A DNA stretch of 62,080 nt, counting the filler, from Squatina squatina (lineage: Eukaryota), in NCBI GenBank assembly GCA_031763465.1. It is 3 parts of 3 records of this genome, joined end to end, with 100 filler letters (N's around TTAATTAATTAA, not from the genome) between each part and the next. Parts side by side here need not be neighbours in the genome. Positions count along the whole stretch, not along the records: positions 48,027 to 62,080 come from JARFOE010000176.1; 2 more parts are not named here. The stretch is one strand, 5' to 3'. The notes under the pieces are model-generated. The model was not told the origin of the DNA. It worked only from the letters and a program-made list of their open reading frames with translations, and searched no databases. Shown here piece by piece: positions 17,018 to 53,077 of the stretch. The stretch's first letter is position 1, and every line of letters starts with the position of its first letter. Both the position numbers and the translations under genes were made by a program.

Positions 17018-17272
17018 CTAATCTGGATACAAAAGAAACCCTGTAAATGTACTATCATCATCAGTGCTGGAAAAAATCCCATTCCAGTCTCGAGTTATCA
17101 TCAACCAGATTTCATCATTGGGGTTTAATTTAAGAATAACCATGCCAGATGCCTGATCTATATCTTGGCCGAAAATTGCATCTCTGGTCTTCAGGGTCCG
17201 AGTACCATTTTTTACCAGGCTAACTCTTAAAGGTCTACTTCTCACAGTCAAATGGTATGAAAACAAATAAAC
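17018..17272 (-). CDS. Otolin-1-like gC1q domain, C-terminal half (partial duplicate copy) with stop
   Basis: [49 protein letters not shown]...[23 protein letters not shown]. Minus-strand AATAAA at 16915-16920. Confidence 0.8.
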
Positions 17273-18059
17273 AGCGTGTACTAGAGCTAAGCTATAATAA
17301 ACTGTGGATAGAGTAATCCCAGCAAAATTTCGGAGGCCTGAAATTTAAAATATGGTTTCTGTACCATTTGAAGTTTGTTCCTGGTGTGTGATTAAGTAGA
17401 AATTGTGTAATCACATGAAGCCCTTAAATAACTGCAGCTCAGATTTAAAGAGTACTAAGAGAGACAAAGGGTGGATTTTTGAGGCATTTGCAATCATATG
17501 AGGGAGTCATTGAACAGTGGGAAGGTATTAACAGATTGGAAACAGAATAACAAGATGCAGGCATTAATCTTACTTCAATACTGTGTAAAATAACATTACA
17601 ATTTATTTGGGGCAAATTTTATTCTGTTCAAGTTCAGTAACATGACCCACTGAATTGAATTTGGCATTGAATGACCTTTATAGTTGTCTTATTATGCAAA
17701 TATTAGTTGTACTAATTGAACGAAGCAAATCTGATTCTACCTATTGTTTTGCACATATCACTTTCCTGTGAGATAAAGCAGTGTATGATTCAAACCAAAT
17801 TAATGTTAACTCAGACAACTTTTGGAGAGATTGAAGACAGACACATGCAAAGGACACCAGTACTCAGTCCAGATTGCAAGACAATTCTACTGTTACAGCC
17901 CTGGGTTATGCTATTGTTCAGGTGGATCTAGGGCAGTGTGAGACAACTCCCAGCAAAGTAAAATATGCAGATTACTAACGGGAGTGACTGAAACCATTGA
18001 ACCCTCAACAGTATCTATGGCAAACCTTAATTTGTTATAACAATAAGTTAGTAAACATT

Positions 18060-18195
18060 AGTCAACAGGATCTCAGAAGGGAAAGATCCTGCCTGACTAA
18101 CCTGCTTGGCTTTTTTGAGGAATCAACACCCTAGGTGGACTATGGAAAGTTCTACAACATGGTGTACCTAGATTTTCAAAAAGCATTTGACAAAG
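18060..18195 (+). mobile_element. CR1 LINE RT fragment
   Basis: GRSCLTNLLGFFE...VYLDFQKAFDK. Confidence 0.85.
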
Positions 18196-18295
18196 NNNNN
18201 NNNNNNNNNNNNNNNNNNNNNNNNNNNNNNNNNNNNNNNNNNNNNNNNNNNNNNNNNNNNNNNNNNNNNNNNNNNNNNNNNNNNNNNNNNNNNNN

Positions 18296-19012
<717 letters not shown>

Positions 19013-28894: not shown

Positions 28895-28994
28895 NNNNNN
28901 NNNNNNNNNNNNNNNNNNNNNNNNNNNNNNNNNNNNNNTTAATTAATTAANNNNNNNNNNNNNNNNNNNNNNNNNNNNNNNNNNNNNNNNNNNN
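28895..28994. other. Artificial scaffold-joining linker (44N-TTAATTAATTAA-44N)
   Basis: TTAATTAATTAA at 28939-28950 gives stops in all six frames and is centred in N runs. Confidence 0.97.
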
Positions 28995-31175: not shown

Positions 31176-33777
31176 GTACGTCTGCAGCTAATTCCACTTT
31201 CTGTCAGCACATGTCAATCTGATCAATCGCTCAAAGCAACACTTGCCAACCCCGACTGTTTGCAGGGCTGGCACAGGGCAACGTTAGCAGTGCTGGAAGA
31301 TATCAACCTTCCAACAGCGAGAAACACTGGTATTGGTTTATCTATTTGGCAGATAGTTTCTGTATCTTCCTGAAAGGCAAAACGAATGAACAGGCGAGGG
31401 TTATACAGAGGCTATTACAGATTAATATTTAAAGAGCGGTTTTGACATGAAAATGTTATCTGTTTGCCAATGGAGCACTCGAGACTTCGGCGGTCTAAAG
31501 AACTGAATTGTTACTTTATTGGTTCTTTGTCATTTTAAATTCATATCGCAGTGGCGTCCAATCCATATATAAATACTACAATACCTTTCAATGGAATAAC
31601 GATTTTGAAAGATTCAGTTAGTAGTGTAGATTCCCGAATTAAAAACAATGAACATCTTTTTGCAGAAAGAAGCGAGAGAGGTTTTAGTTTCGTGAGTCTC
31701 AGTATAATAATGTGAAAACCACTTGCAGGACTTCGTTATTTTCTTGTTTTCCTATTTATAACATTGATAGACTTAAGAATCCAACTTGAACCAGTTTACC
31801 TTTAAAAAGATGAACTTTTCAAATCAGGACAGTGGTTTCATAAGGTTAATTTCTCTTCCTTAATTGCTGGTCGCTATCCATGTCCCTCGTTATCTGTTGC
31901 AGAACATTATAGTAGGTGCATTTATGTAAATGACAATCAACTTTTTTCTGTGTTTTGGCCTGTTTGGTTCTTGATTTAATCCCTTATTCTGATAGTTTTG
32001 GAATCGGGATGCTCAGGTGCTCATTTCTGGTCGCTGGAAATGGCGCAGATGGTGAAAGTGTCGTACAGAACCATGCAAAACCGAAGTTTAAGGTTTGATT
32101 CTCAGTTTGTGCAATTGGCTAGTCTTAGCTGATGCAGCAATTCGGCAAGGTTTCCTACTCTTGATCATTATCTAGAGACACCTGATAAATAGTGCACATG
32201 TGGAGATTGGGTGAGGACCCTCCACGGTTGAATAGCCTGCAGAAACTCACTATCTCGGCTCAGATATGAAGAAAGATTACAAGGTAACAGAGGACTAACA
32301 ATGTTTGTGTACATATATTGTCATCAAAATTCAAGAGGGAGGGAAGAAATTTGCGGTAGAGGAATGGGAGAACATTCATTTTTGAACAGATAGTACTGGG
32401 TTTATGTCCTTAGGCCACTGTCACTCATATCCCCTGCCAAGAATAATATGATTGTTGTTGGTTTTCAGCCAACCTCATACGTGATACTTGCAAAAGCTGT
32501 GAATTTAGTGGGCTGGGGTTCAGGGAAGATGACTGCAGTTGGAGAAGTCAGCTGAAGGAAAATCTATGGGAAATAAATATGGAGCTAAAAATAAAGTACA
32601 AAAAAGCCCAAAATAATGCTAGATGAGTTGTGCAAATTAGTAGTATGATCCTGCTCTAGCCAGTACTGAAATTGACTACTGTACTAGATATTGGTTCAGT
32701 TCCTCCTTAGTGGCATTCCTGACTACTACATGTGAATAAGGGTTCTACTTCTGTCTATAAAATAAAATTGTGTGACATTCAAGGGCAAAGGTTTAGTTCA
32801 GATGTCCACTGACATTATTTACTGCAGGCTGTTGCACATTCTGTCAATTAGCAGGAAACAGTAAAAGTGTATTTCCATGCAACTCCTAGTCAGCCAGTCA
32901 CATTCAAGGGTTTTGTCTGAGAATGTAAAAATACATCTCATTAACTCTGAAGAGCTTTACATTCAAGCTTGACACTGTAACCACACTGCCTACACCAAAT
33001 GCTACCCACACACTCATTCTTTTTCTAGTTACTGGAAGGCTACCATTACACGCATCCATTTTGAACTGTTTTTTAAATGTTAGATCATATGTAAAGTAGA
33101 TTCAGGCAGCACACAATCAGTAGAAAATCCTTCATTTATGTTCTGCAATATAACAGTGTGTGCTCTAGGTAATTAAATTTGGTTTGTGAAAATTGTTTAT
33201 TAATTGTTAAGGCAAGTATTTAGCTCTGAAAGTAATTTTATCAATAACTAATTTTTTAGAAGCTTTTTATTAAAATATATAAATGTGAGATTTCTACAGC
33301 TCATTCCTAAACTGCAATTTAAATTTTTAACCCTTAAGCTGCTGGGATCTGCACCTGATTTTGCTACAACTTAAGTCCTTACATCCCATCTATGTTTTAG
33401 CAAGGTTGTAATATGGCTATATATGGTACCCATGTCCCCAATAGAGAGCTTTTCTTGAAGGGAGCATGAGTTGGAAATAGGCCAACAAGACTCTAGCTCA
33501 AATTCTCAACCCTTGGTCCGTCTGAGTATGGCACTCTGCTAGGAACNNNNNNNNNNNNNNNNNNNNNNNNNNNNNNNNNNNNNNNNNNNNNNNNNNNNNN
33601 NNNNNNNNNNNNNNNNNNNNNNNNNNNNNNNNNNNNNNNNNNNNNNAGAAGCTGCAGACAAGAGCAGGTGTGCAATAAATCTGGGGCACTACCTAGGATA
33701 ACAAACCTCAAACTTTTAATTTCATTTATACATTTATAATGTAGTGAAATGTATTTATATTTTCTATTGTTTCACAG

Positions 33778-33840
33778 GTAGATAAAAAAATAGTTCGAAC
33801 TGAAATAGGAGTTCTACTTCGACTCTCCCACCCCAATATT
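33778..33840 (+). CDS. CAMK4: CAMK4 exon (exon 3 by human numbering)
   Basis: cag|VDKKIVRTEIGVLLRLSHPNI|gtaagt. Confidence 0.95.
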
Positions 33841-34932
33841 GTAAGTATGAATTGCTATATTCATCATAATACCTAACTTGTCCATTTATTAATATATCAT
33901 CAAAGATATAAGACCCTAGTAATTTTCCCTCATTTTTGTGTAAGGTACGTAATGATTTATAACTTGCAGGCTCAGTTATAAATATGCTACATTTTGAACT
34001 GTTTTATCAATGTTTTGACTGCTCACTATCTGATATAGCACAAATATATTTAACTATTTTTGTGACATTATGGTACAAGCCTGAACTTACACATTAACAT
34101 TAGCACTTGGGTGCCGCTACACCATTTCAAGTAGATGAACATGGGAGGAACAGTTTTCCATTTTATTGCTATGTTTGAAGCCTCATTTTTTATTCGTTCA
34201 TGGGATGTGGGCATCACTGGTAAGGCCAGGATTTATTNNNNNNNNNNNNNNNNNNNNNNNNNNNNNNNNNNNNNNNNNNNNNNNNNNNNNNNNNNNNNNN
34301 NNNNNNNNNNNNNNNNNNNNNNNNNNNNNNNNNNNNNTGCCCATCATTGTGATGACAAGAGCGTGTGTTCTACACCATTATCAGGCTATCAGTTCAGCAT
34401 TATAATGCTGTCACCTGACAGGTGAAAAGGCCTTCACTAAGAAATAATACATTCCTTTATCGAGGTTCTGTTGTGCATAACCATTTTCATTTTAATGTTC
34501 TTCTCTGTCTCCACTCCACCCCAAAAAGGAAATCACGAAACCTGCATAAACTGTGAAGCAAACAATCTGGTCAAAGCACAGTTCAGACATCAACATTTTA
34601 CAGTATTATAATTATCTTACATGTGTTGCAAAACCTGTTTACATCATAGAAATATAGAGGAAATTCAGCACTCAAAGTATTCCAATAATTCCATTAAAAT
34701 AGAAGGATTCATTATAATAANNNNNNNNNNTATAATAAGATGGTCCTATGATCATCCTTATTTACCTCTGGCAAAGGTGTGTTACACGTGAATGATTCTA
34801 CACAATGTCATTTAGTGGATTAAATATAAAACAACTTCATTATAGCACTCATAGGTATTAGCTGAGTGCCATGTGTCAACTACTAGTAACTGCGTTCATT
34901 TCTTACTCTGCATTCTGTTGTTTCTTGTCTAG

Positions 34933-39817: not shown

Positions 39818-40044
39818 CTAAGTTTTCAAAGCATTCCGGAGTTCATTATAGAAGTTGACTAATGAATTTGCCACTGCAGAGTCCACTACAGCCTGTGGCA
39901 GCATTCCTCGTAAATCGGTCTGAATAAAGCCAGTCAAGAGGCTGTGGTCAGGGTCACTCTTCAAAGGAATGCAAAACCATCCACATGGGTGATTAAATCC
40001 ACGAACAAAATTAGGTTGTTTCTCCCCATATTCAACACTGACTC
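39818..40044 (-). CDS. STARD4: STARD4 last coding exon
   Basis: cag|(G)[74 protein letters not shown]. Not in the ORF track; position next to CAMK4 fits synteny. Confidence 0.93.
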
Positions 40045-41265
40045 CTGTATTGGGTTAACAAGAAGATTGTCCTTTAATACAACGAGACATTTCAAAGAAT
40101 TACTCCCCAAAATAACTGAACCCTTCTNNNNNNNNNNNNNNNNNNNNNNNNNNNNNNNNNNNNNNNNNNNNNNNNNNNNNNNNNNNNNNNNNNNNNNNNN
40201 NNNNNNNNNNNNNNNNNNNNNNNNNNNCGTCAACACAAAGACAATAGTGGCAGGCAATGGAGGGTTGTGTTCTTCAACTTGCCATATGCAACGCCACAGG
40301 AGATCAAACTAATATGTACATGAATAAATAACAAATTATCCGGACTCAGACAAAGTTTGCTGATAATATCAAACAGGGAGGAGTACCTGGGCTAAGAGAG
40401 CTGGCAGATTATGAACATGTACTGTACACATACTGATTATTCCTGTTCCTTGAACAGAAAAAGATATACTTCACAAACGCTTGTGTACTAGCTTCATTGT
40501 CATCCTTCTTGGTGGTAGAAAGCAGAAAAAATGTACGGCAATATATTACAAAAACAAGAATAAAGAATTAAAGTATACCACAAATGCTAAAGTTTTCGAT
40601 GCAGTGAAGGAAAGGAGGGATCTAAGTGTGCTTGATCCTTAAAAATGGGTGGACAGGTAAAAAAAGCACTTAAAAGGATATTAGCTCGGATGATGTGGAA
40701 TCTGTATGGGTTGAGCTGAGAAATACCAAGGGGCAGAAAACGTTAGTGGGAGTTGTATACATACAGTAGTGGTGAGGTTGGGGATGGCATTAAACAGNNN
40801 NNNNNNNNNNNNNNNNNNNNNNNNNNNNNNNNNNNNNNNNNNNNNNNNNNNNNNNNNNNNNNNNNNNNNNNNNNNNNNNNNNNNNNNNNNNNNNNNNCCC
40901 ATGGAATGCAGGAAACTGGGGTGGGGACATTCTGGACAACAGTGAATAGACAATCTATCAGGAGCAGGCCAGAAAACTGTTGGCAAGTCACTCTGCTTTG
41001 GCTGTGGGAGATAGTGAGATCGGTGGGATGATGCTAGTGGGCACAGACCAAGACAACATCCATGGCATCCCTGTAAAGCAGCAGTTTCCACAAATGTTTC
41101 TGTTTCCTTAATCCCAAGGGGGTTTTACCACCCATTCTTAGTTTACACCCTTCCTTTCCTGCACATCAATCACTGCAATGGCAGGGGCAGAGGACAAGGA
41201 GGAACAGGAGGGAAGAAAGTTCTTCCTTGTGTGCTATTGTGATGACGACTGGGATGATGATGTGG

Positions 41266-42046: not shown

Positions 42047-42599
42047 AGAAAGAGGATGTTGAAGACAAGGCTGGACAGGAGTCCCAGGAACAAGATCTTG
42101 TCCCATGTTCCTCTGCCTTGACTCACTCAATCTCACGAATGATCTAATTGAATGGCTTAAGTAGCTGAATGGCCTACTCCTGTTCATATGTTCACCTGTT
42201 ATGGCACTCGCTTTGTTACTTCCAAACACTTGCTCAGATACATTCACCCAGTGACAATATGGCACCAGGAGGTCATGATCACTGATCATGAGAGAGCTGG
42301 AGAAGTAGGGTGGCAAATTGAAGATGAATGTAATGATGACAGCTGCACATGCCAGATTTGTTTCTCCCCCTCTCAAAGCACTACACTAGTGGCACGTAGG
42401 AAGTGATACCAAGCTGCCCAGGCATATGCTCAGAAATGCAGCCAGCAGTAGCAACCTCCAAGGAGCAAGCTGCCATGAGAGCAGGCTAATTTCAGTCTCA
42501 TGAACTTTTCATATAACAGGAGAAGCCAACCAACCTCGCTATACTGGTTGTCTGGTTGCACTTAGGAGAAGCATCAGAATAGGAAAAAGAAAGGGACAT

Positions 42600-43505
42600 T
42601 TAGACATCCAGCCTTCTCAACTTGTCCTGCCACCTTCAAAGATTTGTGTATGTACACCTCCAGATCTCTCTGTTCCAGCACCCACCTTAAAATTGTATCA
42701 TTTAGTTTATATTGCCTCTCCTCATTCTTCCTACCAAAATGTATCCCTTCATACTTTTCTGTGCTAAATTTCATCTGCCATGTGTCTGCCCATTTCACCA
42801 ATCTGTTTATGCCCTCCTGAAGTTTGTTACTATCCTCCTCATTGTTTCCTACATTTCCAAGTTTCATGTCATCTGCAAACTTTGAAATTATGCCCTGTAT
42901 ACCCAAGCCCAGGTAATTTATATATGTCAAAAGGAGCAGTGGTCCCAACAACAACCCCTGGGGTGGAACAACACAGCACACTTCTGGGTGGGCGTGTGTG
43001 CTGTGAGGAGGATGCAGAGAAACTCCAGTATGATTTGGACAGGTTGGGTGAGTGGGCAAANNNNNNNNNNNNNNNNNNNNNNNNNNNNNNNNNNNNNNNN
43101 NNNNNNNNNNNNNNNNNNNNNNNNNNNNNNNNNNNNNNNNNNNNNNNNNNNNNNNNNNNNTTATTTCCTTTTTCAGTTCTCCTCTGTACTTTCTGTATTC
43201 ACCTTAGTTCTCGACTATTATGAGCCTGACATTTATCATAAGCCTCCTTTTTCTGTTTCATTTTAATCTCTGGATCTTTAGTCATCCAGAGAGCTCTAGC
43301 TTTGGATGCTCTTCCTTTCCCTCTCGTGGGAATGTGTCTAGTCTGTACCTGAACTATGTATTGTTTGAAAGCCTCGCATTGCTCATTTACTGTTTTACCC
43401 ATCAATCTTTGATTCCAATCCACCTGGGCCAGATCCCCTTGCAGCTCACTGAAATGAGCCCTCCTCCAGTTGAGTATTTTCACGTTTGGCTGTTCCTTGT
43501 CCTTT
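42600..43505 (-). mobile_element. CR1 LINE fragments
   Basis: PQG.LLGPLL...ISKFADDMKLG and LNWRRA.F..L..DLA.VDW. Confidence 0.88.
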
Positions 43506-47926: not shown

Positions 47927-48026
47927 NNNNNNNNNNNNNNNNNNNNNNNNNNNNNNNNNNNNNNNNNNNNTTAATTAATTAANNNNNNNNNNNNNNNNNN
48001 NNNNNNNNNNNNNNNNNNNNNNNNNN
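47927..48026. other. Artificial scaffold-joining linker (44N-TTAATTAATTAA-44N)
   Basis: Motif at 47971-47982, same design as the first linker. Confidence 0.97.
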
Positions 48027-48625: not shown

Positions 48626-49255
48626 TATAGCGCCTTTAACATACTAAAACGTCCCAAGGTGCTTCGCGGCGTAATCAGACAAAAATTGACAACGAGCTGC
48701 GTAAGAAGATATTCGGACAGGTGACCAAAAGCTTGGACAAAGAGGTAGGTTTTAAGGAGCATCCTAAAGGAGGAGAGAGGTAGAGAGGCGGAGAGGTTTA
48801 GGGAGAGTATTCCAGAGCCTAGGCTCCAGGCAACAGAAGGCACGGCCGCCAAGGGTGGAGCGATTAAAATCGAGGGTGCTCAAGAGGCCAGAATTCGAGA
48901 AGTGCAGAGATCTCGAAGGGTTGTAGGGTCGGATGGGGTTACAGAGATAGGGAGGGGCGAGGCCATGGAGGGATTTGAAGACAAAGATGAGAATTTTTAA
49001 ATCGAGGCGTTGACGGACCGGGAGCCGATGTAGGTCAGCGAGAACAGGGGTGACGGGTGAGCGGGATTTAGTGCGAGTTAGGATACGGGCAGCAGAGTGT
49101 TGGTTGAGCTCAAGTTTACAGAGGGCGCAAGGTGGGAGACCGGCCAGGAGAGCAGTGGAGTAGTCGAGTCTGGAGGTAATAAAGGCTTGGATGAGTGTTT
49201 CAGCAGCAGATAAGCAGAGGCGGGGCAGAGACGTGTGATGTTATGGAGGTGTAAG
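48626..49255 (-). mobile_element. L2 LINE 3' part, well preserved
   Basis: Starts with the reverse of the L2 3' end (tatagcgcctttaac..taaaacgtcccaagg); LLKTYLF.QAF on the minus strand. Confidence 0.85.
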
Positions 49256-49344: not shown

Positions 49345-49488
49345 CTGAATCCCCAGTTCAAGGGAATATCATCATTGAACAGAACATCAGTCAGACTCCC
49401 TTTAGGGCAGTACTCAATAACTATGGTAACGTTTGGCACCTCAATGGATCCACCAATAAACTTGCATAGATTTGGGTGATCGAGTTCC
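49345..49488 (-). CDS. Kinase-homology-domain exon of a receptor guanylyl cyclase-like protein
   Basis: cag|G ELDHPNLCKFIGGSIEVPNVTIVIEYCPKGSLTDVLFNDDIPLNWGF(R)|gtaaat; compare NPR1 [39 protein letters not shown]. Confidence 0.88.
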
Positions 49489-49605
49489 CTGGAATGAGCA
49501 GAGAAGCAATCGGCAAATAAAACCCCGTAAATAGCATTAACTCACACGACAAAGTAGAGCTATGCATGAAATATAGCATGAAACATCTATACATCAGTGA
49601 TTTAC

Positions 49606-49701
49606 AGTGACTGAATAAGATCAATTTCATCTTTATTGTATACGGTTCTGGGATTTTTGCCAGTGTTTTGGAAATCACATTCCACGATTCCATCCTTTTT
49701 C
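49606..49701 (-). CDS. Possible preceding exon of the same receptor
   Basis: ttttcatag|G KKDGIVECDFQNTGKNPRTVYNKDEIDLIQS CT|gtaaat. Phase 2-2 is compatible with the next exon, but there is no recognisable VAxK motif. Confidence 0.3.
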
Positions 49702-50086
49702 CTATGAAAACTGAAAACCGAAAACCAGCGACCTTGAATGTAACTCTTTTTATATTCTCCTCACTAATATATCTTTTTCCTGGGTGATGGATAAATGGAA
49801 CTATTAATTATTTGTCATGCAGACAAAGACTGAATATGCGACCAATTGTGCCTTATGCTTAAATGCATAACCCATCACCCTAACAATATTTAAAAAGAGA
49901 ACATCTGNNNNNNNNNNNNNNNNNNNNNNNNNNNNNNNNNNNNNNNNNNNNNNNNNNNNNNNNNNNNNNNNNNNNNNNNNNNNNNNNNNNNNNNNNNNNN
50001 NNNNNNNCTGAAGATTTGGTCCTCGTCGCCAAGGTCCATTCGATTAAAGAGATAAACTGAAATGGATCAGGATTATCACTACATAC

Positions 50087-50232
50087 CACCAGAGTGAGTA
50101 TAAAGCCACTACAGAACAGGGCAATTGGAAGTCCAATTGAAACTTTGATCCCAAAAGACATGGGACATGCTCCACAGTCGGCAGGGCAGGTATCACATCG
50201 CTCGTCCCCATCACAGACACCATCATCACAAA
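50087..50232 (-). CDS. Cys-rich juxtamembrane plus transmembrane exon of an orphan receptor
   Basis: tag|TT CDDGVCDGDERCDTCPADCGACPMSFGIKVSIGLPIALFCSGFILTLV|gtatgt. Confidence 0.82.
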
Positions 50233-52760: not shown

Positions 52761-53077
52761 TCAGGATACTGTTTGCGTCCGATAGTGATCAGTGCTCAAG
52801 GTGCCATTTTCAGAGACGACACTTTGCCGGTGTGAGGTGGATTTCAGAACGTCATGCTCCATTTCAATCCTGTGCCTAAAGCTGTGGCAGAACGTATGCT
52901 TTATACTCTGCCATATTTCACGATCCTTGTAGGAGTAAATGATGGGATTCATCAGAGAATTGGTCAAAGCCAGCAGAAGGACCCATATTTTTACGGACCG
53001 CACATTACAGCTGGTACAGTGAATGCCATCCAGAAGGACCACCACCAGCCCTGGAGTCCAGCAAAAAATAAAAGCAC
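52761..53077 (-). CDS. LPAR3-like lysophosphatidic acid receptor, last coding exon (TM6-TM7 and tail)
   Basis: cag|(G)AFIFCWTPGLVVVLLDGIHCTSCNVRSVKIWVLLLALTNSLMNPIIYSYKD...; the mid-TM6 intron is typical of LPAR1-3. Confidence 0.9.

Follow-up and report, generated by a model that had tools for sequence, protein, structure and literature searches.

Two exons in Squatina squatina probably belong to an OlGC8-type receptor guanylyl cyclase gene

The analysed DNA is a stretch of 62,080 nucleotides from Squatina squatina (GenBank assembly GCA_031763465.1), hereafter called the window. Two exons in the window are very probably part of a functional gene for a cGMP-making receptor guanylyl cyclase (GC) that belongs to a separate, old subfamily, probably that of the medaka protein OlGC8, and within it to one of two vertebrate paralogues, here called paralogue A. 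The features of the locus are as follows.

50232-50087, minus strand: exon A, encoding the end of the ectodomain and the transmembrane helix; 146 nt, starts in phase 1 and ends in phase 0
50165..50230, minus strand: six-cysteine juxtamembrane module in exon A, from the translation
50087..50143, minus strand: transmembrane helix in exon A, approximately 19 residues, a hydrophobic run aligned with orthologues
49908..50007, no strand: gap of 100 N between the exons, hiding approximately 103 codons
49488-49345, minus strand: exon B, encoding a kinase-homology segment; 144 nt, phase 2 to phase 2

The initial annotation described two ordered exons on the same strand with clean splice sites, and this description holds: both exons have canonical AG/GT ends and lie on the minus strand, with outer coordinates 49345..50232. 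As it also stated, exon A on translation shows the six-Cys motif and, right after it, a hydrophobic helix. This helix runs on into the next, missing exon. The segment that it had read as kinase-homology, exon B, matches Pfam PK_Tyr_Ser-Thr (E=6e-5) and covers the end of the N-lobe, the hinge and the start of the C-lobe of the pseudokinase domain. Searching the window with orthologues by tblastn gave 93-105 bits per exon, and the best scores obtained with 20 shuffles of one orthologue were 20.8-28.5 bits; the exon matches are thus not due to chance. Exon A is 98% identical to proteins of Heptranchias, Mustelus and Heterodontus, and exon B is 98% identical to the proteins P0004 and P0006. Eight of the nine orthologue queries matched both exons with one and the same protein (98% for each exon in Heptranchias and Heterodontus). 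The ninth, the Pristiophorus gene model P0008, skips exactly the exon B segment, which is consistent with the exon B boundaries. With 98% identity to one and the same set of shark proteins, the two exons belong to one shark gene, in agreement with the earlier proposal of a single transcript.

The hinge ("gatekeeper") residue of exon B is encoded by codon 49416-49418 on the minus strand and is Ile, a residue found in none of 181 relatives, 177 of which have Thr. This is either a change in the species or a sequencing error.

Exons A and B cannot be spliced directly to each other, since exon A ends in phase 0 and exon B starts in phase 2, and approximately 103 residues lie between them (residues 253-355 of the orthologue P0006, sitting between its exon A and exon B matches). 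The 100-N gap mentioned in the initial annotation is present, but its size is a placeholder, because the approximately 309 nt needed for these residues exceed what 100 N can hold. We infer that some three exons are hidden in the gap, coding for the juxtamembrane linker and the first part of the kinase-homology domain. The window contains 51 runs of N, of which 39 are exactly 100 long, and the median unbroken stretch is 920 nt. It had been noted that no cyclase domain is visible, and searches of the window with nine and then ten family proteins revealed no more exons of this gene; the window does not include the ectodomain core, the gene start or the exons for the cyclase. The Squatina copy could hence be broken elsewhere. 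Two linkers bear on the missing sequence.

47927..48026, no strand: stop-rich linker N44-TTAATTAATTAA-N44, 1.3 kb past exon B
28895-28994, no strand: second copy of the N44-TTAATTAATTAA-N44 linker, 100 nt

The genes beyond 47927-48026 are unrelated to this one. Both linkers are probably joins between separate, unrelated scaffolds, and gene order across them should therefore not be read as synteny. A scaffold end at 47927-48026 would account for the absence of the downstream cyclase exons from the window.

A search with exon A gave 15 matches among 17 candidates. Fourteen of these come from fishes, are 674-870 aa long and have Pfam domains for kinase and cyclase; most bear the automatic name "ANP receptor 2-like". 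The remaining one is an unnamed repeat protein. Judged from Pfam and alignment, the orthologues consist of a signal peptide, an ectodomain of approximately 210 aa, one helix, a kinase-homology domain, a coiled coil and a cyclase. The single transmembrane helix is encoded in exon A, and the rest of the ectodomain is found in the orthologues. The kinase-homology domain of the orthologues keeps the VAIK lysine, has HGRL in place of HRD and thus no catalytic Asp; this motif falls outside the window. So do the coiled coil and the class III cyclase with GTP-type motifs, both present in the 98% identical orthologues. In class III cyclases Glu/Cys specify GTP and Asp residues bind metal. The three cyclase motifs are kept in 228, 227 and 226 of the 246 ectodomain-bearing proteins longer than 700 aa, and are invariant in a 20-row alignment. 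The initial annotation had proposed either a receptor GC or a pseudokinase family. The former is retained, whereas a pseudokinase receptor lacking a cyclase is ruled out, as 14 of the 15 exon A matches carry the cyclase domain.

The six-Cys module was found in 231 of 233 collected proteins in which the ectodomain core and the GC-type motif occur together. This juxtamembrane module, pointed out in the initial annotation, is present, but the distinctive part is the whole His-rich Ig-like domain of approximately 180 aa upstream of it, outside the window. In the AlphaFold model (pLDDT 86.5) the ectodomain is a beta-sandwich into which a helical, Cys-rich segment is inserted, together with a small Cys module, and on this model we regard the ectodomain as an Ig-like sandwich of no named family plus the six-Cys module. 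Fold searches with the shark ectodomain model gave Ig-like neighbours with a best Z of 8.2, the matches being generic; neither a periplasmic-binding protein nor a specific family was among the matches listed. No meaningful Pfam or NCBIfam family was found for the ectodomain and Cys module, and a sequence search of solved structures gave no ectodomain match among the matches listed. In the ESM Atlas the shark ectodomain gave no usable match, and a protist-like copy gave scores of only 0.77-0.78. Pfam and the beta-rich model of approximately 210 aa agree with the earlier suggestion of an ectodomain that is not of the periplasmic-binding type and carries a juxtamembrane Cys module.

The core of the ectodomain resembles SoxZ, macroglobulin domains and superoxide reductase (neelaredoxin) in fold, with Z of approximately 8. 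For superoxide reductase 4brv the comparison gave Z 8.0 and rmsd 3.2 over 111 of 124 residues, with 14% identity. It should be noted that a Z of approximately 8 is the level of a common arrangement, and the likeness is one of fold. Copper, zinc and iron proteins returned by Foldseek (PmoD, LPMO, CrdA, superoxide reductase and Zcp) had TM-scores of approximately 0.3 or below when normalised by query length, and they were not counted as evidence.

Without the Cys module, the ectodomain core matched 238 representatives at E<=0.001, of which we examined the best 150. The matches fetched include unnamed receptor GCs that share this layout but lie outside the two vertebrate paralogues; they look like invertebrate proteins. 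P0238 is a cyclase that bears the ectodomain and has adenylyl-type residues. In seven unnamed proteins (P0211, P0213, P0221, P0236, P0242, P0247 and P0265) the His-rich domain precedes repeats rich in Cys and a membrane region with several helices; we suggest from their sequences that they are a second, undescribed type of receptor using the His-rich sensor. The His-rich domain occurs as tandem repeats in P0153 and P0258 and together with Sushi repeats in P0154, and the unnamed protein P0003 has the six-Cys module alone, in 15 tandem copies. Both the His-rich domain and the six-Cys module are mobile modules. The model of P0258, which is weaker (pLDDT 67), has two domains with the same top fold neighbours and a best Z of 9.3.

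Residues of the His-rich domain were counted in 409 domain matches in the collected proteins, using the 275 that cover at least 120 columns; many of the proteins counted were also in the alignment behind the conservation profile. His104, Asn106 and His108 (model numbering) are kept in all of 247 close and 12 intermediate copies, and in 12, 14 and 14 of 16 distant copies, respectively. His134 is kept in 245 of 247 close, 12 of 12 intermediate and 9 of 16 distant copies, and His164 in 244, 12 and 11 of these. Several or all of the His residues are lost from the distant copies P0206, P0228, P0260 and P0261. In the model the five residues alternate with hydrophobic residues on predicted adjacent strands, and for this reason they probably share one polar face. 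Between shark paralogue A and platypus paralogue B, the ectodomain core is 73% identical and the kinase-homology domain 65%.

An ectodomain search with a teleost query gave 411 proteins among 482 candidates, and the 120 listed are all from fishes. With a lizard query, 408 proteins were found among 689 candidates. The 120 listed come from sharks, ray-finned fishes, coelacanth, lungfish, amphibians, reptiles, birds, platypus, koala and two opossums, with no placental mammal among these 120 of 408. The full matches from platypus and marsupials rank at 81-82% in a listing that extends down to approximately 66-69%. A tree of 64 whole proteins resolved two clades, paralogues A and B, with SH-aLRT support of 99 and 91, and a tree of 28 intracellular parts, from which P0206 was left out, resolved the same two with support of 100/100 and 98/96. 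Both trees were built without NPR1/2 or GUCY2 sequences. Judged from these sequences, jawed vertebrates carry two paralogues. Paralogue A was found in cartilaginous fishes, ray-finned fishes and coelacanth, and in no tetrapod among the matches listed. Paralogue B was found in all vertebrate groups covered, up to birds, platypus and marsupials. The earlier view that the family is absent from mammals is thus incorrect, since the sister paralogue B is present in platypus, koala and two opossums. Exon A is 85-98% identical to seven paralogue A proteins of cartilaginous fishes and 46-60% to 13 paralogue B proteins; the corresponding figures for exon B are 89-98% and 74-85%. By these identities we assign the gene in the window to paralogue A.

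The abstract of PMC10061024, a paper from 2023, counts seven characterised membrane guanylyl cyclase subtypes. The family was not described in the accessible parts of this paper or of PMC1435932, PMC8215749, PMC6787079, PMC7674705 and PMC7144826, and no description of it was found in the literature searched, with most subscription journals and supplements outside the search. Nor did the literature searchable here contain the two-paralogue history, the retention in monotremes and marsupials or an ancient His-faced Ig-like sensor. The name OlGC8 was absent from the literature searched and from the protein matches listed.

The family that we describe is, going by reported lengths, probably that of medaka OlGC8, reportedly an orphan membrane GC outside the known subfamilies (Yamagami et al., 2003, in Zoological Science). 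OlGC8 is said to have a 214-residue ectodomain, a 19-residue helix and a 24-exon gene, to show basal activity only, and to be expressed in kidney and testis. It was reportedly insensitive to natriuretic peptides, STa and extracts of medaka tissues. In P0377, a protein of Oryzias melastigma, the ectodomain cut at W22-K235 has exactly 214 residues and the helix cut at M236-V254 exactly 19, and P0004 also fits these numbers. Paralogues A and B cannot be separated by length alone, since the Heptranchias A protein has the same spacing. P0377 is a paralogue B protein and fits both numbers reported for OlGC8. The family was thus probably encountered once before, in the form of paralogue B, and the paralogue A gene in the window is probably the ancient sister of OlGC8. 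Calling the family poorly characterised, as was done initially, is right in that it is little studied, with the qualification that it was probably cloned once, as OlGC8.

The database names would make the gene a divergent natriuretic peptide receptor of the NPR1/NPR2 lineage, and we consider this highly improbable. Besides the automatic names "ANP receptor 1-like" and "2-like", the reading has in its favour that, among solved structures, human GC-A gives the highest score (487 bits, vs 339 for GC-C), and the family resembles GC-A/NPR1 and GC-B/NPR2 in intracellular layout and sequence, with kinase-homology domain, coiled coil and GTP-type cyclase. The GC-A match is, however, restricted to residues 295-819. 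No ANF_receptor Pfam domain was found in P0006, P0017, P0377, P0327, P0329 or P0381, and the ectodomain, approximately 210 aa and predicted to be beta-rich, is about half as long as the periplasmic-binding-type ectodomain of approximately 450 aa in NPR1/NPR2, unrelated to it in sequence, and carries the six-Cys stalk. We reject a true NPR1/NPR2 identity on the strength of this ectodomain, and the label "ANP receptor 2-like" is accordingly wrong: the family would work like GC-A inside the cell but departs from the natriuretic receptors in its ectodomain. The receptor-GC architecture is also shared by the sensory GCs (GC-D to GC-G) and by GC-C/GUCY2C (residues 325-818 match at 339 bits), but GC-C is more distant than GC-A and gave no ectodomain match; the solved-structure comparison covered GC-A and GC-C, and GC-D to GC-G were not among its matches. 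On the intracellular part, four of seven unnamed outsiders exceed GC-A with 545-733 bits, and P0206 (433), P0151 (376) and P0238 (229) score lower. These bit scores argue against nesting within NPR1/NPR2. The proposal of a receptor-GC family apart from GC-A to GC-G is supported. Improbable too, if not to the same degree, is that the gene is decaying in Squatina or that a scaffolder joined exons from different loci. The assembly is fragmented, a gap separates the exons, and the Thr-to-Ile change in exon B is unusual; against this, the exons are open with intact splice sites, in the right order and on the right strand, both are of paralogue A, and each has one difference from its closest orthologue. 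A paralogue A gene of the separate subfamily is the reading that we adopt.

Receptor GCs are dimers with an inhibitory kinase-homology domain and cGMP as output, according to the accessible part of PMC1435932. By analogy with the wider family, we expect the receptor to work as a homodimer in which the kinase-homology domain would restrain the cyclase until an extracellular signal lifts the restraint and GTP is converted to cGMP. The Ig-like domain may read the signal through its His/Asn face, and the six-Cys module may be a rigid, disulphide-bonded stalk that passes the movement to the helix. As the initial annotation stated, this is an orphan receptor. We tentatively suggest a small, chemically unchanging ligand, such as a metal ion, a metal-bridged molecule or protons, rather than a natriuretic peptide. 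Such a fixed cue would best explain why the His/Asn set is conserved even in protist-like receptors of other layouts. The generic fold matches and the four distant copies that have lost His residues count against a metal. About as likely, though still short of an even chance, is that the same receptor binds a conserved peptide or protein (a hormone, gamete or matrix ligand) on the face of the sheet or on the helical insertion, with the His residues serving in contacts or at the dimer interface. Most characterised receptor GCs have peptide ligands, Ig-like sandwiches commonly bind proteins, and high conservation of the ectodomain fits any slowly evolving ligand. A shared peptide is, however, unlikely for protist-like receptors of different architecture and tandem-repeat proteins that have the same His/Asn set, and OlGC8 is reported to be unresponsive to natriuretic peptides, STa and tissue extracts.

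Extending the small-cue reading, we speculate that the family is an eighth class of vertebrate receptor GC, built on an ancient eukaryotic Ig-like sensor that would detect Zn, Cu or pH via a His-x-Asn-x-His/His/His face. The same domain would sit on seven-helix receptors and on an adenylyl-type cyclase in protist-like proteins, and an early duplication in jawed vertebrates would have been followed by loss of one copy in tetrapods and of the other in placentals. As a whole this scenario is doubtful.

Other features of the window are the following.

52764-53108, minus strand: final coding exon of a GPCR resembling lysophosphatidic acid receptors; among solved structures closest to LPAR2 and LPAR1, Pfam 7tm_1
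56411-56608, minus strand: mucolipin exon, closest to mucolipin-3, on the same strand as the adjoining LPAR-like gene
59654-59830 and 60314-60466, minus strand: last exons of an ABCC transporter, by sequence match
39821-40054, minus strand: last exon of STARD4
17021-17344 and 18296-19012, minus strand: collagen and C1q segments (Pfam Collagen, C1q)
48767-49240, minus strand: retrotransposon fragment, no Pfam match
42577-43059, minus strand: retrotransposon fragment, reverse-transcriptase match
33767-34003, minus strand: exon-like open stretch, no Pfam match

Humans have an LPAR3-MCOLN2-MCOLN3 cluster, and the mucolipin and LPAR-like neighbours recall it, which suggests that the local gene order is real. 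We take the ABCC transporter (59654-60466) to be ABCC10-like, the fragment at 48767-49240 to be L2-like and the collagen/C1q segments (17021-19012) to be otolin-1-like. The start of C1q is present in both collagen/C1q pieces, which may reflect either two copies or a duplication made in the assembly.

The gene in the window is most likely a member, as sister paralogue, of a neglected and mislabelled family. This family is an additional, widespread receptor GC beyond the seven characterised subtypes, hidden under a wrong database name; because of the mislabelling, the "ANP receptor-like" annotations of fish, frog, bird and marsupial genomes mix it with true natriuretic receptors. That the ectodomain has changed less than the kinase-homology domain points to a ligand that has stayed the same. 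Mutating the five conserved polar residues offers a direct way to search for this ligand, with the cyclase itself as read-out, and among the model species that have the family are Xenopus, quail, opossum and teleosts. If it is true that placentals lost the family, a signalling pathway was dropped at the base of the placental lineage.
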